Shown: positions 11,539-59,477 of the stretch, in pieces | Position numbering within the stretch: position 1 is the first letter of the stretch | Layout: each line of letters starts with the position of its first letter | From: an uncultured Rickettsiales bacterium | Lineage (GTDB): Bacteria > Myxococcota_A > UBA796 > UBA9615 | Assembly (NCBI GenBank): GCA_964344575.1 | Contig: CAYFOA010000011.1 | Coordinates: 4,193 to 68,192, forward strand | Reading direction: 5' to 3' | Length of the DNA stretch: 64,000 nt | Position numbers and translations under genes: made by a program | The notes under the pieces: generated by a model | Databases searched by the model: none | The model's input: only the letters and a program-made list of their open reading frames with translations | What the model was told of the DNA's origin: nothing

Positions 11539-11541
11539 AGG

Positions 11542-13080
11542 TCAGCGGACCTTCAGCTCGACCGGCGCCGCGCGGGAGCCCTTGCCGCCGATCCGTCGGC
11601 CTTCGCCGTCGAACACATCGACGTACCACTGGACGCCGCCGAGCCAGGCGTCCGTGATCGTGATCGGCCGCCCCGCCCGCGAACCCTCGGGGTTCAGCTC
11701 GATGACGTGCCAGTTCGCCGCGCCGACCTTCATCCACAGCTCCACGCGCTCGGCTCCGGGCCCGTCGAGCTCGACCGCGAAGGGCCACGCCGGGTCGTCG
11801 ACGATGACCGCGCCCGGCGCCACGACCGCGATCTTCACCGCCGGCAGGGGCGTGGGGGTCGGATCCCGGGGCGGCGGGTCCCACTTCGGCGTCGGCGGCT
11901 CCGAAGCCCCGACCGCCACCGGCGTCGCCGCCTCGACCGGCGCGGCGACGTCCGACCGGCGCTCGGGTTCGGGCTCGGGCTCGGGCTCGACGTTCTCGTT
12001 CTCGTTCTCGTTCTCGTTCTCGTTCTCGTGCTCGTGCTCGTTCTCGTGCTCGTTCTCGTTCTCGTTCTCGTTCTCGTTCTCGTCGTCGACGGAAGCATCG
12101 TCGGGGGGATCCCCAGCCCCTTCCTCCCGTCCGCCGTCCCCCACCATCAGCAGCAACACCACCGCGGTCACGACTGCCGCGATGGCCGCCGCCCTGCCGG
12201 CGCGACGGACCCGGGTCGGGGCGTCGGGCAGCTTCAGCGCGGGGACCGCCGCCGTCGACAGCAGCGCCGCCGTGGTGGGGACGATCTCCTCGAGGTGCGC
12301 CTGCGCCTCCTCCACCGTCGCGAACCGGTCCCCCGGCTTCTTCGCGATCATGCGGTCGATCCACGTCTGCGCGTCCACCGGGAAGCCCCGCGGCAGCCGC
12401 ACCGAGCGCGCCTCGCCGGTCGCCCCGAAGAGCAGCGTCCGCCCCACCGAGTACAAGTCCGACGCGTACGCGGCCTTCTCCAGGTCCCGCACCTCGGGCG
12501 CCATGTAGGCCAGCGTCCCCATCAGGTCGCCCGTCTGCGTCAGCCCGAGATCCGTCTCCAGGTGGGCGATGCCGAAGTCGCCCAGCTTCGCGTGGCCGTC
12601 GAGGTCGAGGAAGACGTTCCGGGGCTTGACGTCGCGGTGGACGATGTCGTTGCGGTGGACGGCCTCCAGCGCGGCGAGGAGCTCACCCGCGAGCTGCGTC
12701 CACTGCGCCGGCCCCAGCGGCCCACTCCCCTTCACCCGGGCGTGCAGGCTCCCCCCGGGGACGTACTCCATCACCAGGAACACGGTCCCGTCCTGCACCC
12801 CCGCGTCGTACACCTGCACCACCCGGGGGTGGTTGATCCGCGCCGCCGCCCGCCCCTCCTGCCGGAACCGCGCGAGCAGCTTGTCGTCCAGCATCGCCCC
12901 CGCGTTCAACGTCTTGATCGCGACCTTCCGCCCGAGTTCAGGATCCTGCGCGCGGTACACCTTGCCCATGCCCCCGCCGGCGATGAACGACTCGACCCGG
13001 TAGCGGCCGAACCCCGCCGGCAGGTCCACCGTGTCCGCGTTCGTGCCCCCGCGCGGGCGCGTGGTCCCGGGATCGCTCAC
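11542..13080 (-). CDS. Hanks-type Ser/Thr protein kinase, single TM, with Glu-Asn dipeptide repeat and C-terminal extracytoplasmic domain
   Basis: Kinase motifs are GGGMGKVYRA, VAIK, HRDVKPRNVFL, DFG and YMAPE. A TM helix AAAIAAVVTAVVLLLMV is present. (EN)n/EH repeats are encoded by a hexanucleotide repeat. The GTG start at 13078-13080 overlaps the upstream stop codon (GTGA). Confidence 0.9.
   Translation of the reverse strand: MSDPGTTRPRGGTNADTVDLPAGFGRYRVESFIAGGGMGKVYRAQDPELGRKVAIKTLNAGAMLDDKLLARFRQEGRAAARINHPRVVQVYDAGVQDGTVFLVMEYVPGGSLHARVKGSGPLGPAQWTQLAGELLAALEAVHRNDIVHRDVKPRNVFLDLDGHAKLGDFGIAHLETDLGLTQTGDLMGTLAYMAPEVRDLEKAAYASDLYSVGRTLLFGATGEARSVRLPRGFPVDAQTWIDRMIAKKPGDRFATVEEAQAHLEEIVPTTAALLSTAAVPALKLPDAPTRVRRAGRAAAIAAVVTAVVLLLMVGDGGREEGAGDPPDDASVDDENENENENENEHENEHEHENENENENENENVEPEPEPEPERRSDVAAPVEAATPVAVGASEPPTPKWDPPPRDPTPTPLPAVKIAVVAPGAVIVDDPAWPFAVELDGPGAERVELWMKVGAANWHVIELNPEGSRAGRPITITDAWLGGVQWYVDVFDGEGRRIGGKGSRAAPVELKVR
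11989..12080 (-). repeat. In-frame hexanucleotide microsatellite (GTTCTC/GTGCTC)x~15 encoding (Glu-Asn)n/(Glu-His) in the kinase gene
   Basis: cgttctcgttctcgttctc...gtgctcgtgctcgttctc is seen directly. The translation is ENENENENENEHENEHEHENENENENENEN. Confidence 0.95.
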
Positions 13081-21946: not shown

Positions 21947-23740
<1,794 letters not shown>

Positions 23741-23744
23741 GGGG

Positions 23745-23800
23745 CTCCCTCCAAGGTCGTTGGAGCGGCGCCAATTGACCCACCGGTCAAGGAATTGTCA
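23745..23800 (-). promoter_or_regulatory. Sigma-70-like promoter candidate (TTGACA-N17-TCAATT) plus GGAGGGA RBS for the MopE-like lipoprotein gene
   Basis: Minus-strand reading is cccTTGACAattccttgaccggtgggTCAATTggcgccgctccaacgaccttGGAGGGAgccccATG. Confidence 0.4.
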
Positions 23801-23828
23801 AGGGTGATCCTGTGGAAGTTTCGTGGTC

Positions 23829-24470
23829 TTAGCGGACCACGTACCGCAATTCGGCCGAGCTGCGGACCGCCGTTCGCCACGCGTTGTAGGCCTCCTCGAA
23901 CTCCAGGTTGTGGACGCGGCGGGTGACGTCGTCGCGGACCTCCTCGAAGGGGCGGCCCCCGTACACCGCGTCCTTGTGGCGCTCGTAGTAGGTCCTCTCG
24001 GCCTCCTCGGTGACGTCCACCACCACCGCGAGGTCGACGATCCGGTCGAGCACGACGGACTGCTTGAAGAAGTCGAGCAGGACGGCCTTGTCGAGGCCCC
24101 AGTCGACCCGCCACGCGACGGCGTCGCCGCGGTCCGCGAACGTCTCCTCGAAGAGGCGGAGGCGGCGCTCGGCCGCGAACCCCGACGGCCGGATGGCGCG
24201 GATCTCGGGGCGGCTCAGCAGGATCGTGCGGAACACGACGGCCTCCAGGGGGTCGACCGGGTCCGTCAGCAGGCGCCCGAACTCGGCCTTGTCCGGCGAG
24301 CTCGCGATCTGCTCCCGGATCGCCGCCTCCAGCGCCACCGACGAGGCCGTCACGGGGGTCCCTTCGACCATCGCGACGACGCGGTCGACGAGCGCTCCGG
24401 CCTCGTCCGGCGTCTTCGGAGGGTCCGCGGCGAAGAGCGCGGCGACTACGAGAACAGTCCGCCAACCCAC
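23829..24470 (-). CDS. Hypothetical secreted/periplasmic protein (~214 aa); start uncertain (alternative ATG at 24371)
   Basis: The C-terminal part of ORF 23829..25103 is protein-like. GTG at 24468-24470 gives a signal-like N-terminus WRTVLVVAALFAA. It overlaps the upstream CPBP gene stop by ~25 nt. It is co-oriented downstream of the CPBP gene. Confidence 0.5.
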   Translation of the reverse strand: MGWRTVLVVAALFAADPPKTPDEAGALVDRVVAMVEGTPVTASSVALEAAIREQIASSPDKAEFGRLLTDPVDPLEAVVFRTILLSRPEIRAIRPSGFAAERRLRLFEETFADRGDAVAWRVDWGLDKAVLLDFFKQSVVLDRIVDLAVVVDVTEEAERTYYERHKDAVYGGRPFEEVRDDVTRRVHNLEFEEAYNAWRTAVRSSAELRYVVR

Positions 24471-25270
24471 GAGAACAAGCCTGTCACGTCCCCCCAGAGA
24501 TCGCCGAACGTCGTCGGATCCAGGGGGCTGATGCCGTAGATGTGGTCGAGGACGATCATCACGCTGTTCGCCCACGTGTGGAACAGCGCGCCGGCGAGCA
24601 CGTTCCCCGATCGCGCCCGCATCCAGCCGAACACCAGCGCCGGGAAGAGGATGAACGGCTGCCACCACTGCCACGTCACCAGGCTGTGGCCGAGCGTGAA
24701 GAGCACCGCGGTGATGGGCAGTGCCCAGCCGAACTTCGCGCCGAACAGCTCGAACCGCTCGGGGTCGTACAGCCCGTCCAGCCGCGTCTGCATGTAGCCC
24801 CGGTAGAAGAACTCCTCCGCGTAGCCCACGCAGAGCAGCTGGTAGAGGACCTGCATCGCGATCGTCAGCGCGATCCCGGACGTGATCGCGTTGCCCGGGC
24901 TGAACGTCGGGTAGCCGTACTTCATGCCCATCACGTCGACGGTGAACCAGTTGTAGAACCAGGTCTGGGCGACGTGGTAGCCGGGCAGGAAGAAGACGTA
25001 GATGACGGCGGTGACGACCGCGAAGAAGGCGAACGCCTTCCGGAAGGCGGGCCAGAACGGGTCGGGGAACGTGATGTCGTGGCTGACGACGAAGTTGTTC
25101 CACTTCTCCGCGGCGACCGGGGTGTAGAGGAAGACGATTGCGACGAGGACGAGCCAGTCGTTGGCGAGGGCGCCGCTGTCGACGAGCACCTTGATCCCGC
25201 GGATGAGGAGGCAGGAGCCGAGGTAGAGCGCCAGGACCTCGGTCCAGACGCGGGCGCGGGACTCGGTCAA
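24446..25270 (-). CDS. CPBP family intramembrane metalloprotease (CAAX protease-like)
   Basis: Motifs EEFFYRG (EExxxR), FTLGHS (FxxxH) and FHTWANS (HxxxN). Multiple TM helices. The TTG start lies 1 nt after the upstream LarE-like stop. Confidence 0.85.
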   Translation of the reverse strand: MTESRARVWTEVLALYLGSCLLIRGIKVLVDSGALANDWLVLVAIVFLYTPVAAEKWNNFVVSHDITFPDPFWPAFRKAFAFFAVVTAVIYVFFLPGYHVAQTWFYNWFTVDVMGMKYGYPTFSPGNAITSGIALTIAMQVLYQLLCVGYAEEFFYRGYMQTRLDGLYDPERFELFGAKFGWALPITAVLFTLGHSLVTWQWWQPFILFPALVFGWMRARSGNVLAGALFHTWANSVMIVLDHIYGISPLDPTTFGDLWGDVTGLFSWVGGLFS

Positions 25271-51537: not shown

Positions 51538-53129
51538 GAACGACGACTCTGACCCTGACGACGCTCCTGCTGCTGGCGGCGACCCCCGCGGCGGCGGAGG
51601 ACTCGACGCTGGAGGCGGACCTCGACGCGATCGAGGCGATGTCCGCGCTCGGCGACGACGCGCACGACCTCCCGCTGGAGCACGCCGTGCGGCGGACGCT
51701 GGAGGAGAACCTCGGCCTGCGGGTCCGCATCAAGGAGCTGGAGGCGGCGCAGGCGCGGCTGAAGGCGTCGTGGGCGCCGTGGATGCCGTTCGTGACGGCG
51801 GGGTGGGGGTACCACCCGTCGCGGTCGGAGATGTTCCTCGACGACTACGAGACGTGGCGGCGGACGAACGGGGACAGCGCGAACTACAACGTCGGGTTCG
51901 GGGTGAACCTGCCGACGGGGACGAACGTGTCGCTGACGTGGGCGCAGGGGGCGGTCAACAGCAAGGTGAACTTCGACCCGGAGGTGACGTTCGAGAACCC
52001 GCTCGACCCGGACAACCCGATCCCCTTCCTGGTGGACAGCGACTTCTCGACGAAGTGGTCGGCGCTGTCGATCCGGCTGAACCAGTCGCTGCTGCAGGGG
52101 ATCTCGCCGACGTACCAGCTGCGGAGCGTCCGGAAGGCGGGGCTGGCGCTGGACGTGGCGGAGGTGCAGCGGGACCAGGAGATGACGGACGCGGTGGCGC
52201 TGGCGCTGAAGCAGTACTGGGACCTCGTGGGGTACCGGCGGCTGGTGGAGATCCACCGCATCGACCGGCGGCTGGCGGAGGACCAGCGGGAGGTGACGCA
52301 GGCGCTGATCGACGCGGGGAAGCTGGCGCCGATCGAGCTGCTCCGGGTGGACGAGCGGGTGGCGAGCGCGAGCGCGGCGGTGCTGGAGGCGCAGCACAAC
52401 GCGGCGGCGGCGGAGTCGGGTTTGAAGCAGCTGATGCGGGTGGGTCACGACCACGCGCTGTTCCGGACGCCGCTGCGCCCCGTGGACGGGGTGGCGTCGG
52501 TGATCCCGTCGCGGGATCGGGACGCGTCGATCGACATGGCGGTGGTCCGCAACCCGGGGCTGATCCTGGCGCGGGCGGACGTGGAGGCGGACTGGATCGA
52601 CCGGCAGGCGGCGCGGCACGAGATGCTGCCGGACCTGGGGCTGACGGCGGCGCTGTCGCTGAACGGGTCGGGGTTCGAGGTCCGGGAGTCGGTGGAGGAC
52701 GTGTTCAACACGCGGTTCCCGGACCTCGAGCTGGGGATGACGTTCACGATGCCGGTGCCGGACGTGGGCGCGATCCACGCGCTGAGGGCGTCGGACCTGG
52801 AGCTGGAGGCGGCGGAGGCGAACGAGGCGAACGTGGAGCTGCAGCTGCGGTCGAACGTGGAGCAGTTCTGGGGCGCGATCCAGTCGTTCGCGGCCCAGGT
52901 GGAAGTCGCCCAGGTCCGAGCCGACCTCGCGGCCCGGTCGGCGGACGCGGCGGCGGCGACGTACGAGGCGGGCAAGAACACCCTCCGCGAGGTCTTCGAG
53001 GCCCAGGCGGACCTCAAGGAAGCGAGGGTCGCCCTCCTCCAGGCCGAGATCGCCGAAGCGAAGTCGAGGGTCGAGCTGGAGGTGCTCCGGGGCTCGTTGC
53101 TGGAGACGCTGGGGGTGGAAGTGGAGTAG
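51534..53129 (+). CDS. Outer membrane efflux protein (TolC/OMF family)
   Basis: ATGA overlap with RND2. Signal peptide MRTTTLTLTTLLLLAATPAAA. Two-repeat coiled-coil/beta pattern typical of OMF. Internal ATG of a composite ORF. Confidence 0.85.
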   Translation: MRTTTLTLTTLLLLAATPAAAEDSTLEADLDAIEAMSALGDDAHDLPLEHAVRRTLEENLGLRVRIKELEAAQARLKASWAPWMPFVTAGWGYHPSRSEMFLDDYETWRRTNGDSANYNVGFGVNLPTGTNVSLTWAQGAVNSKVNFDPEVTFENPLDPDNPIPFLVDSDFSTKWSALSIRLNQSLLQGISPTYQLRSVRKAGLALDVAEVQRDQEMTDAVALALKQYWDLVGYRRLVEIHRIDRRLAEDQREVTQALIDAGKLAPIELLRVDERVASASAAVLEAQHNAAAAESGLKQLMRVGHDHALFRTPLRPVDGVASVIPSRDRDASIDMAVVRNPGLILARADVEADWIDRQAARHEMLPDLGLTAALSLNGSGFEVRESVEDVFNTRFPDLELGMTFTMPVPDVGAIHALRASDLELEAAEANEANVELQLRSNVEQFWGAIQSFAAQVEVAQVRADLAARSADAAAATYEAGKNTLREVFEAQADLKEARVALLQAEIAEAKSRVELEVLRGSLLETLGVEVE

Positions 53130-53151
53130 GCCGGCTGGTGCAACGCCTCGC

Positions 53152-53649
53152 TCAGGGCCGGGAACTTGGACGGCAGTCCGAGCGCTGTCGCGGGGAGGGC
53201 ACAGTCCAGCGGCCACCTACCGGGGCGCTCCAGGCTCCCCCGCCGTCACGGACTCGAACGCGCCATTCGACCTCGTCCCCCTTCGGCCAGTCGCGACACA
53301 CCGGGAGCGTTACTGTCTCCCTCCGATCGAGGCTGACGTGCGGCGCGACCAGCGTCGTCCCCAGTGCTTCGACTTCGAACTCGGGTGAATCGAGGCGCTC
53401 CTTGCCCGGCTCTACATCAACGAGGAGCCGCACGGCGTATCCGAGGGCGACGCCGCGTCGAGGCTGACCACAGGTCGTGGCGGGATGACCTGGGTCGCAG
53501 AACTCGACCCCGTGAATCACGGTCGCCGTCGGCCGGGAGGATGTGGGTTCGCAGGCTTGCAGCAGCAGCGAGCCGACGAAGGCTACCGCCAACGCCCCGC
53601 CGAGGTGCCGCCCCGAGGGCGACCGAGGCTCGCCGACTGGGGTGGTCAA
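53152..53649 (-). CDS. Hypothetical small lipoprotein (165 aa), low confidence
   Basis: N-terminus ...GGALAVAFVGSLLLQACEP carries a lipobox. Composition is protein-like. It is convergent with the OMF gene. Confidence 0.4.
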   Translation of the reverse strand: MTTPVGEPRSPSGRHLGGALAVAFVGSLLLQACEPTSSRPTATVIHGVEFCDPGHPATTCGQPRRGVALGYAVRLLVDVEPGKERLDSPEFEVEALGTTLVAPHVSLDRRETVTLPVCRDWPKGDEVEWRVRVRDGGGAWSAPVGGRWTVPSPRQRSDCRPSSRP

Positions 53650-54350
53650 AGGTAGTTGAAGATGTCCCAGGGCCCTGGGCAGTCGGTATCACTTCTGGCG
53701 GGCATCCCGCTCTGGTAGCCCCATCCATCCGTTTGGTATGTGCAGTCGGGCGGAACGTACGAGTACCACTCTACGAGGTAGTCGCACAGGCAGACCGCAG
53801 TGAAGAACGGAAACCAGTCGATGTCCCAGTAGCAACCCTGCAGATGACGGTGCGTACCGCTCGGTGGACAGGGCACCGACGAGTCTTCTTCTACTTGTAC
53901 TTCTTCGTCTTCTTCATCTTCATCGTCATCGTCGGGCGCAGTGCCGTCGTCGTCATCGTCGTCATCGTCGTCGTCGTCATCATCGTCGTCGTCATCGGGC
54001 GCGGTGCCGTCGTCGTCATGGTCCGGTTCGTCGATCTCGACGGTGTCGGGGCCGGGGCTGTCGTCCACCAGCTCGCGTATGAGGGTCGCGACCGGACTCT
54101 CTCCGCCGTCGTCGTCGTCGGTTGCCACGACCGTTGTCCCGGCCCCAGGCGCCGTCATGCACACGCCCATCTCGGTGTCGCACCCGCAGCAGGTGCCGTC
54201 GTCCGAGCCCGAGGTCGGTGCACAGTCCGAGTCGGAGTCGCATTCCTGTCCAGCTGGGCAAGTCACGCCCTCGCAGGGATCGCCGCCTTCGCCTTCGCCA
54301 TCCGGCTCGACCCTACCCTCGCCTGGGCCGCCCTCCTCGCCCTCGGCGAC
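53646..54350 (-). CDS. Acidic poly-Asp, Cys/aromatic-rich protein; 5' end undetermined
   Basis: Reading frame of ORF 53646..55082. From ~54350 downward codon usage is A/T-rich at third positions, atypical for this genome. Contains CEGVTCPAGQECDSDSDC, a run of ~17 Asp, and the C-terminus CYWDIDWFPFFTAVCLCDYLVEWYSYVPPDCTYQTDGWGYQ. The upstream part of the ORF is Arg-rich and spurious. Confidence 0.35.
   Translation of the reverse strand, partial: VAEGEEGGPGEGRVEPDGEGEGGDPCEGVTCPAGQECDSDSDCAPTSGSDDGTCCGCDTEMGVCMTAPGAGTTVVATDDDDGGESPVATLIRELVDDSPGPDTVEIDEPDHDDDGTAPDDDDDDDDDDDDDDDDDGTAPDDDDEDEEDEEVQVEEDSSVPCPPSGTHRHLQGCYWDIDWFPFFTAVCLCDYLVEWYSYVPPDCTYQTDGWGYQSGMPARSDTDCPGPWDIFNYL
53885..54005 (-). 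repeat. GAC/GAT trinucleotide run encoding poly-Asp (~17 D plus flanking D/E)
   Basis: gtcatcgtcgtcatcgtcgtcgtcgtcatcatcgtcgtcgtcatc on the plus strand. Confidence 0.9.
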
Positions 54351-54646
54351 CGAGAAGTCGGGTGGGACCTGGGGACCGAAGAACCAGGTCGGCCAGCTCG
54401 GGGATCGCGCTGCGATCGACGGGGACGCGCAGGTGCACGGCCCCGACGCCGGCTTCCACCAAGCCCTCCGCGCCACGCCCCCTCGGAACCACTCGGGCAA
54501 CGGCTGTTCTGCGCCGCGCCTCGACCGGCAGGAACACGAACCGCCGCGCTCACCCTTGCAGGAGCAGCTTCGACCGGAGCAGGAGCGATGCCCCTTCGTG
54601 GAGCGGACCCGAGCGCTGACTCGATCGAGGCGGCGCTCCCGCCAGC

Positions 54647-55033
54647 TCAGAGCGTGACGATCTGCCACCGGGCGCTCGCGCGGCACGCGACGGGCGTCGT
54701 CCCCGAGTTCCGGTGGATGTGCCAACCGAACCGTATGAGGCGCTTGCTGCTCGTGTCGCTGCTGGCGTCCGAGTAGGCGCCCTGGTCCTGGTAGCCGGCA
54801 GCGTTCGTCGCGGTGCCGACCGAGGTCGAGCTGCCCGGGTTGTCCGCGAAGTCCGCGACCTGGTAGGCCGGGACGACGTCGAGGTTCCCGATGACTTCCT
54901 CGATCTCGAAGGCAGCGCGGACCTTCTCGATGTTGGCCGCGCTCATCCACGGCGTCGCCGAGATGAAGATGTCGGTTGTGTCGTTCTCGGTCATCAGGGT
55001 GGTCGGTGGTGCGTAGACCGAACGAGTTCCCAT
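54647..55033 (-). CDS. Hypothetical protein (128 aa) of unknown family, preceded by a consensus Shine-Dalgarno site
   Basis: MGTRSVYAPPTTLMTENDTTDIFISATPWMSAANIEKVRAAFEIEEVIGNL... Composition is balanced and non-GC-biased. GAAGGAGG lies 8 nt upstream of the ATG. Local GC is lower than the genome average. Confidence 0.55.
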   Translation of the reverse strand: MGTRSVYAPPTTLMTENDTTDIFISATPWMSAANIEKVRAAFEIEEVIGNLDVVPAYQVADFADNPGSSTSVGTATNAAGYQDQGAYSDASSDTSSKRLIRFGWHIHRNSGTTPVACRASARWQIVTL

Positions 55034-55041
55034 GGGGATCC

Positions 55042-55049
55042 CCTCCTTC
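55042..55049 (-). promoter_or_regulatory. Consensus Shine-Dalgarno GAAGGAGG 8 nt upstream of the ATG of ORF 54647..55033
   Basis: Plus strand reads ccctccttc. Confidence 0.6.
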
Positions 55050-55086
55050 GCCGCGACGTGCGGCGTGAGAGGAGGGTTTCACAGCC

Positions 55087-55104
55087 AGAGAGAGAGAGAG
55101 AGAG
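55087..55104. repeat. (AG)9 dinucleotide microsatellite in intergenic region, followed by a 7-bp stem hairpin at 55140-55156
   Basis: cagagagagagagagagagagc, then ccttccg-tgg-cggaagg. Confidence 0.9.
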
Positions 55105-55197
55105 CAAGGTCCGTGCCGTTGCGCCCAGTGTAGTTCGGTCCTTCCGTGGCGGAAGGGCCAGGGTCGTGCACGGAGGCGAGCGACCTATACTGGCCTC

Positions 55198-55773
55198 GTG
55201 AGTTCTCGTGCCACGAAGCGAGCGACGTACGAGGATCTCCTCGCGCTCCCCGTGCACGTGGTCGGAGAGCTCATCGGGGGCGTCCTGGAGGTCTCGCCGC
55301 GCCCCGCTCCGCCTCACGCGGTCGCCCACTCGGGCCTCAGTGGCCAGCTGACGCCGCCCTTCAGCTGGGGGCGCGGCGGACCCGGCGGCTGGTGGATCCT
55401 CACCGAGCCGGAGCTTCACCTGGGCTCGGACGTCCTCGTGCCCGACCTCGGAGGTTGGCGACGGGACCGCATGGAGGAGATGCCCGAGACGGCGTACTTC
55501 GAGCTGCCGCCGGACTGGGTCTGCGAGATCGTCTCGCCCGCGACGGCTCGAGTCGATCGGGTGCTCAAGCTGCCGGTCTACGCGAGCGCCGGCGTCGCCT
55601 GGGCATGGCTCGTCGATCCGATCGCCCGATCCCTGGAGGTCTTCCGCGGAGCCGACCGGACCTGGGTGCTGCACTCCACGCACTCCGGCGACGACATCGT
55701 GCGCGCTGAACCCTTCGCCGCGGTCGAGCTCGAGCTGTCGCTGGTCTGGGGGGAGCTGCGGGGGGCGGGATAG
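55198..55773 (+). CDS. Uma2-family (DUF820) PD-(D/E)xK putative endonuclease
   Basis: YFELPPDWVCEIVSPAT resembles the Uma2 signature (PDLVVEVLSPS). 191 aa. GTG start. Confidence 0.8.
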   Translation: MSSRATKRATYEDLLALPVHVVGELIGGVLEVSPRPAPPHAVAHSGLSGQLTPPFSWGRGGPGGWWILTEPELHLGSDVLVPDLGGWRRDRMEEMPETAYFELPPDWVCEIVSPATARVDRVLKLPVYASAGVAWAWLVDPIARSLEVFRGADRTWVLHSTHSGDDIVRAEPFAAVELELSLVWGELRGAG

Positions 55774-55847
55774 AAGGTCCTCCTGATGCCGGCGGTAGGG
55801 AGGCAAAGCCAGGTTGCATTGTGCAACCCATCCGATAGAATTGCTTC

Positions 55848-56189
55848 ATGTCCACCGCCGTCAAGCTGTCCTCCGAGCTGGTCGAGGCTGCGCGCGCCGA
55901 GGCTGAGCTGTACTCGCGGTCGATGACGCAGCAGATCGAGCACTGGGCTCGTGTCGGGCGCGCCATCGAGCGGTCGGGGGCCGTCGATCCCGAGCGGGTG
56001 CGCGCGGCGCTGCGGGCGGAGCTGCACTTCGACGAGCTGGGGACCGAGGAGCGGATGGCCGTGCTGGGTGAGCTGGAGCGGGCGGTCCTGAAGCCGAAGG
56101 GGGACCGCGCCCTGGCCCGGGAGCTCGCCGCCGGCGGTGAGACGCTGGTGGGGGCCGGCGCCGACGGCGAGCTGTTCGAGGTGCCGTGA
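55848..56189 (+). CDS. ParD-like antitoxin (partner of zeta-toxin-like ATPase)
   Basis: 113 aa, helical and acidic. The N-terminus has the pattern MSTAVKLSSELVEAARAEAELYSRSMTQQIEHWARVGRAIE. The stop overlaps the downstream GTG start (GTGA). Confidence 0.7.
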   Translation: MSTAVKLSSELVEAARAEAELYSRSMTQQIEHWARVGRAIERSGAVDPERVRAALRAELHFDELGTEERMAVLGELERAVLKPKGDRALARELAAGGETLVGAGADGELFEVP

Positions 56190-56779
56190 CCGCCGAGCCG
56201 CCGCTCCTGTGGCTGCTGATCGGACCGAACGGGGCGGGGAAGAGCACCTACTACCGGACGCGCATCGAGCCTCGTCTGGGGGTCGAGTTCGTCAACGCCG
56301 ACGTCATCGCCGCCGCCGAGTGGCCGGACGCCGGTCCCGAGGCCGCCTACGAGGCCGGACGGCGGGCGGCCGAGCGGCGCCGGCTGCTGATCGCCTCGCG
56401 GGAGTCGTTCGTCACCGAGACGGTGTTCTCCCATCCGTCGAAGCTCGATCTCGTCCAGGCCTCGCTCGACGCCGGCTACGAGCTGTGGGTCACGTTCGTC
56501 TGCGTCCAGACGCCCGAGCTGGCCGTCGCCCGCGTCGCACACCGTGTCCGCCGCGGCGGGCACGACGTCCCTCGCGACAAGATCGAGCAGCGGTTCGCCC
56601 GGATGACCGAGCAAGCCAAGATCGCGGTCCGGCGGGCGCGGCGGGCGTTCATCGTCGACAACAGCGACCCCCGCCGGCCGCTGCGGGACGTGATGACGTT
56701 CGAGCGAGGCCAGCTGACCTGGCGAGCAGACGACCTGCCGGCGTGGTGTTGCGCCCTGTTCGGAGGGGCTCTGGACTGA
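56186..56779 (+). CDS. Zeta-toxin-family P-loop kinase-like toxin
   Basis: Walker A LLIGPNGAGKSTY. Size ~197 aa. It follows a ParD-like antitoxin in the canonical gene order. Confidence 0.8.
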   Translation: MTAEPPLLWLLIGPNGAGKSTYYRTRIEPRLGVEFVNADVIAAAEWPDAGPEAAYEAGRRAAERRRLLIASRESFVTETVFSHPSKLDLVQASLDAGYELWVTFVCVQTPELAVARVAHRVRRGGHDVPRDKIEQRFARMTEQAKIAVRRARRAFIVDNSDPRRPLRDVMTFERGQLTWRADDLPAWCCALFGGALD

Positions 56780-57127
56780 TCATGAGCGTTCGGGAAGCTC
56801 GCGGCTCCGACGTGGCCGGGAGCTGTCAGGGGCTCTCGTCGGGTCTAGGCTCTGAATGCAGGCCTACGGCCGTCTCGGGGACGTAGTAGGTCAGCGTCTG
56901 CTCCTCACCGACCTCAGCACCTCGAGCTGGACGACGTCCACCGCGTTCATCTCCATGAAGACGACTCGCGGAGTTGCCGGGCGTTCTGCCGACTCGGCTG
57001 GGGCGACGCCGCGTCAGCGGCGCAAACCCCTCGGCGGAACATCAAGCGGGTGCGGCCGGACACCTTGAGGCGATCAATCGATGAGGTTCAGTTCGAAGTG
57101 GTGTGACCGCCGAGCCGACGATTTGAA

Positions 57128-57661
57128 TCAGGACTCCTCGAGGATCTCCTCGAGTGCGTACCAGGTCTTCTGCGGGATGCGCTCCCGGTCGAAGTAGCGG
57201 AGCATGATCTCGACGGCGTCTTCGTACCGCTCGACGTTGAGCGCGCGGAGGAGGAAGCGGACGTCTTCTTCGTCGCGGAAGCCCTCGCCGATACGCATGG
57301 CGGCGCACTTCAGGGCCAGCAGGTACTCCGGTTGGGCGACGAAGACCGCGAGGTGGGGGAGGTCGAGGAAGGGGTCGAACTCGCCGCGCGCGCTGAGGAA
57401 GCCCTTCACGCCGTCGTTCAGCCAGTCCTCGCGCACGTCCGCTCGGAGGGCGACCCGCGCGGCCGCCCGACGGAGCTCGGCGGTCGGCCGGAACAGCGCG
57501 TCCACGTCCCGGGTGGACTCGCGGGCCTCGAAGACGAGGCACATCACGGCGCCGCCGACCAGGTAGAGCTCGCCCCGGATCCCCTCGCGCCCCAGCTCCT
57601 CGTCGAGGAGGTCGAACAGACGCCGGATGTCCTCGGCCGTCAGCTCCAGGCGGTCAGGCAC
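57128..57661 (-). CDS. Nucleotidyltransferase-fold protein (MNT/AbiEii-like minimal NTase)
   Basis: LYLVGGAVMCLVFEARESTRDVDALF fits the hG[GS]...DhD NTase signature. It overlaps the upstream RHH-protein gene by 8 nt. Confidence 0.7.
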   Translation of the reverse strand: MPDRLELTAEDIRRLFDLLDEELGREGIRGELYLVGGAVMCLVFEARESTRDVDALFRPTAELRRAAARVALRADVREDWLNDGVKGFLSARGEFDPFLDLPHLAVFVAQPEYLLALKCAAMRIGEGFRDEEDVRFLLRALNVERYEDAVEIMLRYFDRERIPQKTWYALEEILEES

Positions 57662-58142
57662 GGTCGCCCACCGCCGCGTCGATGAACAGGTTCCTCCGCC
57701 GGAACGCCACTGGGGCGGACACCAGGAGGTGCTCCCGGAGCCGCCGCAGTCGGGTGCCGAACCAGGGGTGAGGGAGCGGGGGCACGCGAGCCGCCCAGGC
57801 GGGCGGCGGGCAGCCGAGGCGGGCGGCCGTCATCTCGACCAGCGCCGCGACGTAGTTGCGCTCCCGGAGCGGCAGGAAGTCGACCTCGAGGCCGTCGACC
57901 GCGAGCGGGAAGTCGATCGCCGCGAGCCCCTGCAGCAGCTCGATGATCTCGGCCCAGGCCGCCTGCGACGAGCCCCCCGTGACGTGCCCCATCAGCGCCG
58001 CCAGCCGCCTCCGGGGCTCGGGGAGGGCGCGCGCGAGGATCCACTCGGACATCCCCATCCCCGCCCGCTCCGAAGCGGTCCGGATCGCCCGCTTCTCGGC
58101 CTCGGTGACCCTCAGTTGGAGTTGGTGCGTACGCGTCGCCAT
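57654..58142 (-). CDS. Ribbon-helix-helix DNA-binding protein with C-terminal extension (possible HEPN-like Rx4H)
   Basis: N-terminus MATRTHQLQLRVTEAEKRAIRTASERAGMGMSEWILARAL has an RHH/CopG-like pattern. The C-terminus contains RRLREH. Confidence 0.6.
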   Translation of the reverse strand: MATRTHQLQLRVTEAEKRAIRTASERAGMGMSEWILARALPEPRRRLAALMGHVTGGSSQAAWAEIIELLQGLAAIDFPLAVDGLEVDFLPLRERNYVAALVEMTAARLGCPPPAWAARVPPLPHPWFGTRLRRLREHLLVSAPVAFRRRNLFIDAAVGDRA

Positions 58143-58214
58143 ACCTCTGCCTCCGAAGACGATGGGTCGGGGTCCACACTATGTCAAGACGGTGTATTGA
58201 CACAGTGCTTCAAA

Positions 58215-58270
58215 TACATCGATTGTACGAATCGACTTGATCGACATAAATCGAGTCAATAAGGTCGATT
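58215..58270. promoter_or_regulatory. AT-rich divergent promoter region with TCGATT-GTACG-AATCGA palindrome and about five AATCGA-like half sites
   Basis: catcgattgtacgaatcgacttgatcgacataaatcgagtcaataaggtcgattc lies between the RHH/NTase module (minus) and the HTH-citrate-synthase gene (plus). Confidence 0.5.
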
Positions 58271-58271
58271 C

Positions 58272-59477
58272 ATGTCTGAGATCATCCCTGCCAAGGAGGC
58301 GGCCGCGATCCTCGGGATCAAGGTCCAGTCGCTGTACACCTACGTCTCGCGGGGGGTGCTCCAGTCCGTGCCCGGGGCGGGGCGGTCGAAGGGGTATCGG
58401 CGGGCCGACGTCGAGCGGCTGAAGACGAAGACCGAGACCTCCACCGCGCTCCGCTGGGGGGAGCCGGTGCTGTCGACCGAGCTGACGTCGATCGCGCCCG
58501 ACACCGGGCTGCGGTACCGGGGGCACGCCATCGAGGCGCTCGCGGACGAGTCGTTCGAGTCCGTCGCCGAGCTGCTCTTCACCGGGGAGCTGCCCGAGAT
58601 CCGGCCCACGTGGGTCACGCGGGGGCTCGGGATCGTGCCCGTCGACTTCGCCTCGGCGGTCCCCACCGGGACGCCGCCGCTGACCAGCCTCATGGTCGCC
58701 GTGCCCGCGCTGGCGTCGCGCGACGACGAGCGGTTCGGGGCCGCCGAGGCCGCCGAGCTGCACCGGGGACGCCGGTTGATCCGGCGCATGGCGGCGCTGC
58801 TCGCCCTCGGGCTGGACGTCTCCCGGTGCGGGCCCGCCCTCGCCCAGGGGTCCGTCGCCGGCACCGTCGCCCGCGCCCTCGGCCGCGGCAGCACCACCGA
58901 GGTCGTCAGCGCCGTCGACCTCGCCCTCGTCCTGTGCGCCGACCACGGCCTCAACGCGTCGACCTTCGCCGCCCGCGTCGCCGCGTCCGCCGGCGCCGAC
59001 CTGTACGCGTCCACGTCCGCGGCCATGGCGGCGCTCTCCGGCTGGAAGCACGGCGGCGCTTGCGACCGCGTCGAGGCGCTCCTGGACGAGGCCGGGACCG
59101 CCGCCCGGGCCGGCGACGTCGTCCGCGGACGGGCCGCCCGCGGCGAGTCCGTCCCCGGCTTCGGCCACCCGCTCTACCCCGACGGCGACCCCCGCGGCGC
59201 CATGCTGCTGGAGGCCGCGCGCCAGGTGTGGGGGGACAGCGACCGCCTCGCCACGTTGAACGCCGTCGTCGCCGCCATGGACCGCCTCGGCCACGCCCCC
59301 CCGAACCTCGACGTCGGCCTCGTCGCGCTCGCGTCGGCGCTCGGCCTCCCCCGCGGGTCCGCCAAGGCGATCTTCGCCGTCGGCCGCACCGCGGGCTGGA
59401 TCGCCCACGCCCTGGAGCAGCGCCGCCAGGGCTTCCTGCTCCGCCCCCGCGCCCGCTACGTCGGCCCCGAGGCCTAG
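58272..59477 (+). CDS. HTH (excisionase/MerR-like) domain fused to citrate-synthase-family domain
   Basis: N-terminal AAILGIKVQSLYTYVSRG is an HTH. Citrate synthase motifs are LSGWKHGGA, GFGHPLY, PNLDVGL and VGRTAGWIAHALEQ. Confidence 0.85.
   Translation: MSEIIPAKEAAAILGIKVQSLYTYVSRGVLQSVPGAGRSKGYRRADVERLKTKTETSTALRWGEPVLSTELTSIAPDTGLRYRGHAIEALADESFESVAELLFTGELPEIRPTWVTRGLGIVPVDFASAVPTGTPPLTSLMVAVPALASRDDERFGAAEAAELHRGRRLIRRMAALLALGLDVSRCGPALAQGSVAGTVARALGRGSTTEVVSAVDLALVLCADHGLNASTFAARVAASAGADLYASTSAAMAALSGWKHGGACDRVEALLDEAGTAARAGDVVRGRAARGESVPGFGHPLYPDGDPRGAMLLEAARQVWGDSDRLATLNAVVAAMDRLGHAPPNLDVGLVALASALGLPRGSAKAIFAVGRTAGWIAHALEQRRQGFLLRPRARYVGPEA

Follow-up and report, generated by a model that had tools for sequence, protein, structure and literature searches.

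The stretch between an efflux operon and an HTH-citrate-synthase gene raises the question of what it holds and whether it arrived as one element. In the window, the 64,000 nucleotides of DNA that were analysed, an initial annotation had described there (53130-58271) a lower-GC accessory island in which toxin-antitoxin (TA)-like and nuclease modules were stacked. The location was right, with AcrB-type RND and OEP genes on one side and the HTH-citrate-synthase gene on the other, and all the listed genes and ORFs (Uma2, the ParD-like/zeta and RHH/nucleotidyltransferase pairs, the poly-Asp ORF and the 128-aa ORF) were found at their places (Table 1). The preferred reading, with a probability of about 0.62, is a lineage-specific slot in the chromosome of an uncultured, Polyangia-like myxobacterium, filled piecemeal with small addiction or defence genes, two TA cassettes among them, and not one mobile element. 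Self-sufficient small selfish or defence genes would have been gathered one by one, giving two complete type II-style TA cassettes, a solitary Uma2 gene and a left part of 1.9 kb with orphan ORFs. The islet as a whole seems ordinary, with one gene pair in it from a widespread but apparently unstudied family of putative toxins.

Table 1. Coordinates of the variable segment and of the genes, repeats and candidate sites in it.
Feature	Position	Strand	Basis or remark
Variable segment, 5080 bp	53134..58213		between OEP efflux gene and citrate-synthase promoter
165-aa ORF, lipoprotein-like N-terminus (LLLQAC)	53152..53649	-	doubtful gene
Acidic poly-Asp/Cys-rich ORF	53646..54602	-	start undefined, coding status uncertain
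Tandem repeats, periods 3, 15 and 63, encoding Asp/Glu run	53884..54033		TRF and repeat search
128-aa orphan ORF	54647..55033	-	codon usage, ribosome-binding site
(AG)9 microsatellite	55087..55104		divergent spacer, 128-aa ORF/Uma2
Uma2 (DUF820), PD-(D/E)xK-type putative endonuclease	55198..55773	+	PF05685, E 4e-22, 78.9 bits
Perfect palindrome GGTTGCA-TTG-TGCAACC	55812..55828		candidate operator (predicted), read from sequence
ParD-like RHH antitoxin, 113 aa	55848..56189	+	PF11903, E 5e-17
30-nt direct repeat, copy 1, at parD-stop/zeta-start junction	56174..56203		repeat search
Short zeta/PezT-like P-loop kinase toxin (putative), 197 aa	56186..56779	+	AAA_33 41.4 bits, Zeta_toxin 35.3 bits
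30-nt direct repeat, copy 2	57091..57120		26/30 identical, 7 nt past NT stop
NT, 177-aa MenT1-like/DUF6036-related nucleotidyltransferase, putative toxin	57128..57661	-	MenT1 match, catalytic residues
RHH-X, 162-aa putative antitoxin/repressor	57654..58142	-	NikA-like RHH, E 1e-8
Palindromic candidate operator/-35 of RHH-X/NT	58177..58207		core TGTCAAGAC-GGT-GTATTGACA at 58182-58202

The closest relative, which was also the sole syntenic one found, was L003 (MAG Ust_8; citrate synthase 83% identical, flanks of the slot about 78% identical in nucleotides). Homology of L003 to the window by blastn broke off at 53133 and came back at 58214, and another segment of 382 bp was present there, with the gene order efflux genes, small LMWPc phosphatase gene, citrate-synthase gene; 53134-58213 is thus a variable slot. 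None of the island proteins was found in L003, and the accessory block proposed from the sequence is indeed one that this relative does not have.

The composition shift is small but real, and the claims made of it stood in part. GC of the region 53130-58271 was 0.689 (0.692 for the slot) versus 0.729 for the window, ranking it among the 0.3% of 5.1-kb stretches with the least GC, about 1.9 SD under the mean; the lowest such stretch (0.687) started at 53200. The drop came only from 53134-54646 (GC 0.679) and intergenic spacers. The A/T-ending codons that had been pointed out were seen in this left 1.5 kb (GC3 0.70-0.77), and not in the TA genes (GC3 0.91-0.94), which had host-like codon scores together with Uma2 (0.875) and the flanking genes (0.92-0.98). 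As to k-mers, 4-mer distance was raised only in two of the 2-kb intervals, those that begin at 53001 and at 53501 (together 53001-55500; z about 1.7-1.8), was average or lower in those starting at 55501-57501, and deviated more in other parts of the window than in the region. The AT-rich promoter region was recovered as the divergent promoter region 58143-58271 (GC 0.465).

For the left 1.9 kb (53134-55100), a reading as non-functional debris or young lineage-specific sequence and not a module, with the poly-Asp and 165-aa ORFs as chance ORFs in GC-rich DNA, is slightly favoured. It agrees with the low GC3, and no frame over 53152-54602 gave a host-like codon score. The 165-aa ORF (GC3 0.76, codon score -0.44) was positive in no frame, and gave nothing in Pfam, NCBIfam, PADLOC or PHROG and no homologue. 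The poly-Asp ORF was reduced by the gene caller on contig L001 to 53646-54128 (160 aa), with a codon score of 0.02 over this part and -0.32 upstream; neither start nor signal peptide could be identified, and family matches and homologues were absent. Since host-like coding signal was found in no frame and homologues were lacking, both are doubtful genes, and the acidic poly-Asp protein of the initial annotation, present as an ORF, may be no gene. Against debris stand the TTG start of the 165-aa ORF, overlapping the poly-Asp stop as TTGA, its lipobox-like N-terminus, and the 128-aa ORF, which had host-like codon usage (GC3 0.907, codon score 0.40, own frame best) and the consensus Shine-Dalgarno site that had been noted, AGGAGG 9 nt ahead of ATG. 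Its sole match among 5.8 billion proteins was itself; it is probably a genuine gene without an assigned function, and among the three orphan ORFs, all without homologues, only this one looks host-coded. The left-part sequence was identical in three metagenome contigs, which is uninformative because they are near-clonal.

The (AG)9 microsatellite was confirmed as occurring once in the window (14-nt AG pattern search; 0.04 matches on average in shuffles), and its length was the same in contigs L001 and L002, since the region aligns without gaps. The PF05685 match of Uma2 was full-length and above threshold, its start could alternatively be 55252, and the gene was solitary, with no partner gene at the locus. 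The defence island that had been supposed yielded no established defence system in PADLOC; Uma2 alone matched models of PDC-S03 (E 1e-14; also phrog_16228), which is only a candidate defence gene there.

The stacking of TA modules held good, for two complete TA-type cassettes were present, each also occurring elsewhere in unrelated contexts. In the first, parD and zeta overlap by 4 nt, and the same overlap exists on a Sagittula plasmid, where an ORF 51% identical to the ParD-like protein lies upstream of a zeta-family gene. Both domain scores of the kinase exceeded the Pfam cut-offs; Walker A (13-20) and D39 were present, the GTxR motif was absent, and 188 plasmids carried homologues, labelled either zeta toxin family or AAA family ATPase. 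Ahead of parD, the perfect palindrome overlaps a promoter-like site (TTGCAT...TAGAAT). The substrate phosphorylated by the kinase would be an essential metabolite of nucleotide type, though not UNAG, and the ParD-like antitoxin would block the kinase and repress the promoter at this palindrome. The identity of 26/30 between the two copies of the 30-nt repeat was reached in 0/60 dinucleotide shuffles, and copy 2 may be what remains of another parD-zeta junction; no further relic of such a unit was detectable at the DNA or protein level.

It is unlikely that the whole block was ancestral and vertically inherited, the Ust_8 lineage having lost or replaced it. The host-like GC3 and codon scores of Uma2, both TA pairs and the 128-aa ORF would suit this, as would the average 4-mer composition from 55501 on and the absence of integrase, tRNA and flanking repeats at the slot. 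With a single syntenic comparator, and no outgroup found with the same OEP-citrate synthase adjacency, insertion here and loss or replacement in the relative look alike; host-like TA genes, missing mobility genes and one comparator of about 78% identity in the flanks were weighed against the islet reading, and the polarity of the event may be either. Of the acquired island that had been claimed, the absence from one relative stood, and signs of mobility did not. However, the slot of the relative holds another gene and not a scar, both TA cassettes are met independently, in unrelated genomes and on plasmids, composition is atypical in the left 1.5 kb, and the possible junction relic beside the NT cassette suggests local rearrangement, all of which count against an ancestral block.

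In the second cassette, the RHH-X and NT genes overlap by 8 nt, and they were adjacent or overlapping in eight different neighbourhoods, with NT homologues from sources including Myxococcota, Burkholderiales, Gemmatimonadota, Thermoanaerobaculia and Chromatiales. NT identity was 63-85% among the homologues that were aligned (63-70% between phyla) and that of RHH-X 29-58%, mostly 33-47%; judged from these alignments, a slow-evolving NT with a fast-evolving RHH-X is a TA-like evolutionary pattern. Natural RHH-X::NT fusions exist, which was counted against the main explanation. RHH-X was found on no plasmid, NT there only as distant homologues, the cassette in no phage (NT query), and PADLOC gave no AbiE or other match for the pair.

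RHH-X is composed of an N-terminal TacA/NikA-type RHH, which matches the RHH domains of the antitoxins AtaR, TacA, KacA and MazE7, and a helical domain, about 115 aa long and of unknown family, with invariant R150, N151 and D155 and a conserved FRRRNLFxD tail. The palindrome (T/C)GTCAATAC-N3-4-GTATTGAC(A/G), with TTGACA, was located 29-39 nt ahead of the RHH-X start in 8/8 loci (seven checked; L181 and L182 are one place), with an imperfect left arm in L180, and nowhere else in 2.3 Mb of fetched loci, save contigs fetched by that pattern. RHH-X would dimerise through its RHH and bind this palindrome over the TTGACA -35 box, repressing its own expression, and would neutralise NT through the C-terminal domain and tail; as this domain has no known relative, its toxin-binding role can only be conjectured.

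NT was assigned as a compact pol-beta-fold nucleotidyltransferase with the catalytic constellation of MenT1, its sole, weak PDB sequence match (E 0.12-0.34). R47-x-x-T50-R-D52-V-D54 aligns with R37-F-T39-R-D41-V-D43 of MenT1, and K118, D130 and D133 correspond to K137, D149 and D152 with identical spacing (+12, +15); these residues, whose roles in MenT1 have been described (PMC11375011; PMC7450476), showed little or no variation among 40 homologues. If it acts like MenT1, MenT3 and MenT4, NT would add nucleotides to tRNA 3' acceptor ends, so that aminoacylation and translation would be blocked. Its neutralisation would proceed by occlusion or, in the manner of MenAT1 and MenAT3, by induced autophosphorylation on Thr50, which is invariant, and the cassettes might act in addiction or phage defence.

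It is improbable that NT is instead a small-molecule nucleotidyltransferase (ANT(2'')/LnuA-type aminoglycoside/lincosamide resistance) unrelated to TA systems, with RHH-X its mere regulator: T-R-D-x-D, K and D-x-x-D agree with MenT1 at every position, those of the DUF1814-specific C-terminal motif among them, NT family members match AbiEii and DUF6036 and not ANT families, the partner gene overlaps that of NT and encodes a sizeable additional conserved domain, and the cassette travels as one, with the fast and slow rates of a TA pair. A reversal of roles as in HEPN-MNT systems, where a minimal nucleotidyltransferase is the antitoxin, so that NT would modify or neutralise a toxic RHH-X C-terminal domain, is highly improbable, although RRLREH in the window RHH-X fits Rx4H and the three invariant residues of that domain are polar.

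Among known systems, the kinase cassette resembles, by description and motifs, the non-canonical PezAT-like Rv0367c-Rv0366c of M. tuberculosis, in which a PF11903 antitoxin likewise lies directly upstream of a short zeta-like kinase of roughly 197 aa with P-loop and catalytic Asp and without the UNAG-binding GTxR motif. Rv0366c is reported to be toxic and to be neutralised by its antitoxin. Its homologues were reported to be largely restricted to Corynebacteriales, whereas the window kind is common on proteobacterial plasmids.

The RHH-X/NT pair is like MenAT1 (Rv0078B-Rv0078A) in having the antitoxin upstream and the nucleotidyltransferase downstream in one operon, in toxin size (177 versus about 196 aa), in MenT1 being the best structural match of NT, and in the shared catalytic set, phospho-acceptor Thr included; identity to MenT1 is only 17-22%. 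Unlike MenT/AbiEii (DUF1814; M. tuberculosis, S. agalactiae), NT reached the threshold of no Pfam nucleotidyltransferase family: AbiEii gave no match, and DUF6036 (PF19502; a RefSeq product name) scored 14.4 bits where the cut-off is 23.6, with sub-threshold PF19502 matches in 36/40 family members. At 34-38% identity, distant homologues that bear the DUF6036 name occur on plasmids of Mycobacterium, Rhodococcus and Brevibacillus. They too are preceded by a small ORF, but those upstream partners are unrelated to RHH-X; no mention of DUF6036 was found in the literature searched. MenT toxins pair with unrelated antitoxin families (PMC10435456). RHH-X is unrelated to MenA1 (68 aa, MazE-like, without DNA-binding domain or autoregulation), to COG5340 AbiEi/MenA3/MenA4 and to COG4861 MenA2, from which its RHH, novel helical domain and conserved candidate operator set it apart. 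The RHH domains of NikA and of TacA/AtaR/KacA (DUF1778) match its first 60 residues or so, but the latter antitoxins have about 90 aa and pair with GNAT acetyltransferase toxins, whereas RHH-X carries the extra domain and has a nucleotidyltransferase partner. The locus had been called a plausible home for an undescribed module, which fits this pair: in our reading it would represent a MenAT-like family with a new type of antitoxin, uncharacterised as far as the literature search goes.

The block at window 53134-58213 is an ordinary small toxin-antitoxin (TA) and nuclease islet in a variable slot; small TA and nuclease gene clusters are common in variable chromosomal slots. Its one element worth follow-up is the pair of genes encoding RHH-X, a putative antitoxin of 162 aa, and NT, a putative nucleotidyltransferase toxin of 177 aa, which by its motifs appears to be a widespread MenT1-like candidate TA family. 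The source of the window is an uncultured myxobacterium (window GC 0.729), and proteins identical to those of the window were found on ENA metagenome contigs of project PRJEB17505. For the citrate-synthase gene, the nearest genomes were the MAG 'Proteobacteria bacterium Ust_8' (83%) and then Polyangium, Polyangia and Haliangiales MAGs (about 50%). All genes and features listed in the initial annotation were present, including the flanks, with the AcrB-type RND gene and the gene of the OEP outer-membrane factor, whose end is at 53129, on one side and the HTH-citrate-synthase gene on the other.

The idea that this block is an island was supported by comparison with a relative, not by composition. 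In L003, a contig of MAG Ust_8 and the closest syntenic relative, the block was absent and the RND gene (84% identical) and the OEP gene (79%) were followed by the citrate-synthase gene; the break points were exact at 53133 and 58214, as judged from one comparator lineage and no outgroup. Nucleotide homology returned at 58214, which is the start of the conserved ATCGA-rich citrate-synthase promoter. The 382-bp slot of L003 carried a phosphatase gene of the LMWPc/ArsC type, which overlaps the OEP stop with its 3' end, and no trace of this gene was found in the window. None of the eight island ORFs had a match in L003 or, cassette homologues fetched on purpose aside, in the other 165 fetched loci, thus 53134-58213 is a replaceable slot. 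No tRNA was found in the window, no direct repeats flanked the island, and no recombinase, integrase or transposase domain was detected in any island ORF. Genome and metagenome scans revealed no relatives between 83% and near-identity, and the metagenome contigs L001, L002 and L183 were near-clonal with the window. No outgroup shares the synteny, and gain in the window or loss in the relative would both fit. Vertical inheritance, with loss of the block in the relative, is possible for the TA part, which has a host-like composition.

Positions of the islet genes, their flanks and the related features in other contigs
Feature	Sequence	Position	Strand	Remark
165-aa ORF	window	53152-53649	-	
Poly-Asp ORF	window	53646-54602	-	
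128-aa ORF	window	54647-55033	-	AGGAGG upstream
(AG)9 tract	window	55087-55104		only one in window
Uma2	window	55198-55773	+	
Palindrome GGTTGCA-TTG-TGCAACC	window	55812-55828		perfect
ParD-like	window	55848-56189	+	
Zeta kinase	window	56186-56779	+	197 aa
30-nt direct repeat	window	56174-56203; 57091-57120		first copy at parD-stop/zeta-start junction
NT	window	57128-57661	-	
RHH-X	window	57654-58142	-	
Divergent promoter spacer	window	58143-58271		AT-rich, GC 0.465
Candidate operator palindrome	window	58182-58202		core; wider inverted repeat 58177-58207
Citrate-synthase promoter	window	58214-58271		inverted repeat 58229-58245 / 58255-58271
HTH_17/MerR-like::citrate-synthase fusion	window	58272-59477	+	
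LMWPc/ArsC-type phosphatase	L003	9499-9897	-	PF01451, E 2.5e-18
Citrate-synthase promoter	L003	9918-9985		
Candidate operator palindrome	L083	3450-3471		
Candidate operator palindrome	L084	3453-3474		
Candidate operator palindrome	L087	3448-3469		
Candidate operator palindrome	L178	1955-1976		
Candidate operator palindrome	L179, L180, L181	within ~110 nt upstream of RHH-X start (2008, 2013, 5520)		
Palindrome	L174	2289-2309		IMG/VR viral contig
'DUF6036 family nucleotidyltransferase'	L176 (Brevibacillus plasmid)	1508-2555 (with upstream ORF)		
'DUF6036 family nucleotidyltransferase'	L177 (M. intracellulare plasmid)	1564-2444 (with upstream ORF)		

The GC of the region was 0.689, which lies in the lowest 0.3% among the 5.1-kb stretches of the window (minimum 0.687, start 53200) and about 1.9 SD under the window mean. 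The lower GC that had been claimed for the whole block held for 53134-54646 (GC 0.679, GC3 0.70-0.77) and for the spacers, where the deficit sits, but not for the TA genes, which were host-like. In the k-mer analysis, the 4-mer distance was raised only in two 2-kb windows, which start at 53001 and 53501 (z about 1.7-1.8), and was average over the TA genes. With a codon-usage model trained on 13 confident window genes, host-like scores were obtained for Uma2 (0.29), ParD (0.51), zeta (0.42), NT (0.75), RHH-X (0.38) and the 128-aa ORF (0.40), and the score was non-positive in every frame of the 165-aa ORF, the 56780-57127 spacer and the upstream portion of the poly-Asp ORF. The GC case for foreignness is limited to the 1.5-kb orphan segment. 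Other composition outliers in the window were about 9000-12000 (GC 0.78-0.79) and 22000-25000 (GC 0.67-0.68), whose 4-mer deviation exceeds that of the island.

For the left part of the islet, the 128-aa ORF matched only itself among 5.8 billion proteins and is probably a lineage-specific gene. No homologues of the poly-Asp and 165-aa ORFs were found with a concatenated query from which the Asp run had been removed, a search of uncertain sensitivity which recovered no self-hit. Both ORFs are unproven as genes, and the Asp run is coded by tandem repeats of 3, 15 and 63 nt. None of the three orphan ORFs had a Pfam, NCBIfam, PADLOC or PHROGs match or a match in plasmid DNA. Rfam gave nothing above threshold over 52900-58400 (one sub-threshold match, P35, 29 bits vs a cut-off of 70), and a scan for consensus promoters and terminators found none. 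The (AG)9 tract sits within the divergent spacer, at a distance of 54 nt from the ATG of the 128-aa ORF and of 94 nt from the Uma2 GTG, upstream of both. It was gap-free and of the same repeat length in L001 and L002, so there was no sign of phase variation.

The assignment to Uma2, a family of putative endonucleases, was confirmed by a full-length match to PF05685 (E 4e-22; 78.9 bits, cut-off 27; profile positions 16-170 of 172). PADLOC (PADLOC-DB v2) revealed no established defence system; only candidate PDC-S03 (Uma2) was reported, and the mads matches were marginal (E about 0.002-0.007).

The ParD-like/zeta cassette is a known kind of TA pair. The ParD-like gene (ParD_like, E 5e-17) overlaps by 4 nt the gene of a P-loop kinase, which has the Walker A motif GPNGAGKS (13-20) and the catalytic D39 of canonical zeta/PezT kinases, and which passed the cut-offs of PF06414 (35.3 bits, cut-off 22.3) and AAA_33 (41.4 bits). 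The UNAG-binding motif of canonical zeta/PezT kinases, GTxR (PMC6362051), was absent, with no GT dipeptide anywhere in the kinase. By motifs and architecture, the pair is like Rv0367c-Rv0366c of M. tuberculosis, in which the PF11903 RHH protein Rv0367c is the antitoxin of the 'non-canonical PezT' Rv0366c (PMC6362051): a PF11903 antitoxin stands just upstream of a short zeta-like kinase without GTxR. Zeta homologues with 46-52% identity, named 'zeta toxin family protein' or 'AAA family ATPase', were found on 188 plasmids. In a Sagittula plasmid, the ORF upstream of the toxin gene was 51% identical to the ParD-like protein of the window and had the same overlap. The perfect palindrome ahead of the cassette overlaps a TTGCAT...TAGAAT promoter-like site.

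The parD-zeta junction is repeated in the second copy of a 30-nt direct repeat, which starts 7 nt past the NT stop. The two copies are identical at 26/30 positions, an identity reached by none of 60 dinucleotide shuffles, which suggests that the spot once held another parD-zeta copy or underwent recombination. A relic parD/zeta copy in the 56780-57127 spacer was rejected: only the 30-nt junction was alike, with no similarity found around the repeat beyond it and nothing at the protein level. Contig L183, which corresponds to window 55499-59264, had two G>T changes, at 55951 and 56188. One of them turns GTGA into GTTA, so that parD loses its stop and zeta its GTG start; the change may have knocked out the toxin or may be an artefact of sequencing.

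The RHH-X and NT genes, described initially as an RHH-protein/nucleotidyltransferase pair, encode a NikA-like RHH protein and a protein with a GG...DxD signature. They are small, adjacent and co-oriented, overlap by 8 nt, and are kept together in eight independent neighbourhoods (window, L083, L084-86, L087, L178, L179, L180 and L181/182). In all eight, an RHH-X gene coding for 161-165 aa lies directly upstream of the NT gene, and beyond the pair nothing is common to them. A palindrome, (T/C)GTCAATAC-N3-4-GTATTGAC(A/G), was found 29-39 nt before the RHH-X start in 8/8 loci, with an imperfect left arm in L180. It contains TTGACA, the -35 consensus, and therefore probably overlaps the -35 box. 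As in type II-style TA cassettes, the putative antitoxin combines an RHH domain with a palindromic candidate operator at its own promoter, and the cassette appears to travel with this conserved candidate operator. The right edge of the slot (58213) lies just outside the candidate operator, thus the cassette abuts the conserved citrate-synthase promoter. No conserved cassette ends were found beyond the candidate operator and the NT stop. The palindrome was also observed in seven IMG/VR viral contigs (L168-L174), all of which lack homologues of NT and RHH-X; the ORF that comes after it in L174 begins with MRDVSITIRVTE, a sequence similar to an RHH N-terminus.

[quoted passage not shown] The HTH::citrate-synthase fusion protein, with more than 400 relatives in many phyla, may be a self-regulating metabolic enzyme.

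RHH-X had 391 representative clusters at E<=1e-3, with 29-58% identity among members (mostly 33-47%), and no match in plasmids. The first ~60 residues match known RHH domains, namely those of AtaR, TacA, KacA, MazE7 and NikA; for the ~100 residues that follow, neither Pfam nor PDB sequences gave a match. Conservation is highest in the C-terminal stretch P-x-F...L-R-x-H-L-L...P-x-A-F-R-R-R-N-L-F-x-D. As an antitoxin architecture this would be new: the RHH is of the TacA/NikA type, and the helical domain fused to it has neither a solved nor a Pfam relative. Several RHH-X::NT-like fusions of 335-390 aa were observed (P0197, P0223, P0236 and P0125); the first three have an NT half without the T-R-D-x-D catalytic motif, and P0125 resembles a read-through product whose linker is out of frame.

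NT is unusually conserved and abundant, with more than 5,455 homologues, nearly all unnamed, and 63-70% identity across several phyla; the source names include Burkholderiales, Gemmatimonadota, Thermoanaerobaculia, Chromatiales and Myxococcota. No match in phages was found. The NT of the window had no match to PF08843 (AbiEii) at E<=0.1 and reached 14.4 bits against a cut-off of 23.6 for DUF6036 (PF19502). At E<0.1, 36 of 40 NT relatives matched DUF6036 (best 5.4e-6) and only five matched AbiEii (best E 2.7e-6), and DUF2204 was matched by 18/40. The only PDB sequence match was MenT1 (8an4; single-sequence E 0.12, profile E 0.34). Foldseek was weaker, with no match at E<=1e-3. A MenT-like bi-lobed nucleotidyltransferase fold was found in NT.

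In full-length NT numbering, G36G37 and D52-V-D54 of pol-beta motifs I/II were invariant or nearly so in 40 homologues, and K118, D130 and D133 of motifs III/IV were invariant. NT R47-E-S-T50-R51-D52-V53-D54 corresponds to MenT1 R37-F-T39-R40-D41-V-D43, K118 to K137, D130 to D149 (both K +12) and D133 to D152 (both K +15), and the matching residues are invariant or nearly so across the family. The MenT1 counterparts serve in metal and NTP binding and catalysis, with Thr39 as phospho-acceptor (PMC11375011). Motifs I-IV define the DUF1814 toxins, and the Asp of motif IV is specific to them (PMC7450476).

The fold scores alone would also suit an ANT-type resistance enzyme, but this reading is disfavoured by the DUF1814-specific residues in NT and by the TA-like architecture. 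A reversed, HEPN-MNT-like polarity was rejected on motif and fold, as no HEPN domain with a conserved Rx4-6H stands beside a minimal nucleotidyltransferase; the window RHH-X has RRLREH in its C-terminus, but the family consensus is RxH and no HEPN fold was detected.

Distant DUF6036 homologues were found on actinobacterial and Brevibacillus plasmids, preceded by apparently unrelated small ORFs, which fits the partner-swapping typical of this toxin superfamily. In L176 and L177 these ORFs are annotated as hypothetical. The upstream ORF of L177 had no similarity to RHH-X, and the L177 pair stands among other TA genes (PIN, Xre/MbcA).

We put the probability at a little under one half (about 45%) that RHH-X/NT is a further branch of the MenAT/AbiE-type nucleotidyltransferase TA systems, with a compact, conserved MenT1-like toxin and a new antitoxin architecture. 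No description of the pair was found in the literature searched. In such a system, NT would extend tRNA 3' ends as a MenT-like toxin, and RHH-X would repress the operon at the palindrome and neutralise NT through its C-terminal domain. By analogy with MenA1/MenT1 and MenA3/MenT3, for which induced toxin autophosphorylation has been shown (PMC11375011, PMC10435456), neutralisation may use induced autophosphorylation of Thr50. If the invariant Thr50 is autophosphorylated on antitoxin binding, the control known from MenAT1 and MenAT3 would also hold for an antitoxin of unrelated structure and reach far outside the actinobacteria.

The useful outcome is a cleanly delimited candidate family, composed of a MenT1-like putative toxin and a conserved candidate operator of about 21 bp, which occurs in thousands of environmental genomes. 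Most members are annotated as 'hypothetical protein', and distant relatives as DUF6036. The family offers the MenT field a compact, non-mycobacterial system for asking if autophosphorylation induced by the antitoxin and the extension of tRNA 3' ends hold for the toxin family in general, and by what means an unrelated antitoxin domain would bring about neutralisation. MenA1 is a 68-aa MazE-like peptide and MenAT1 is not autoregulated (PMC7450476, PMC11375011, PMC10435456); unlike MenA1, which has no DNA-binding domain, RHH-X has a predicted DNA-binding RHH domain and a candidate operator.
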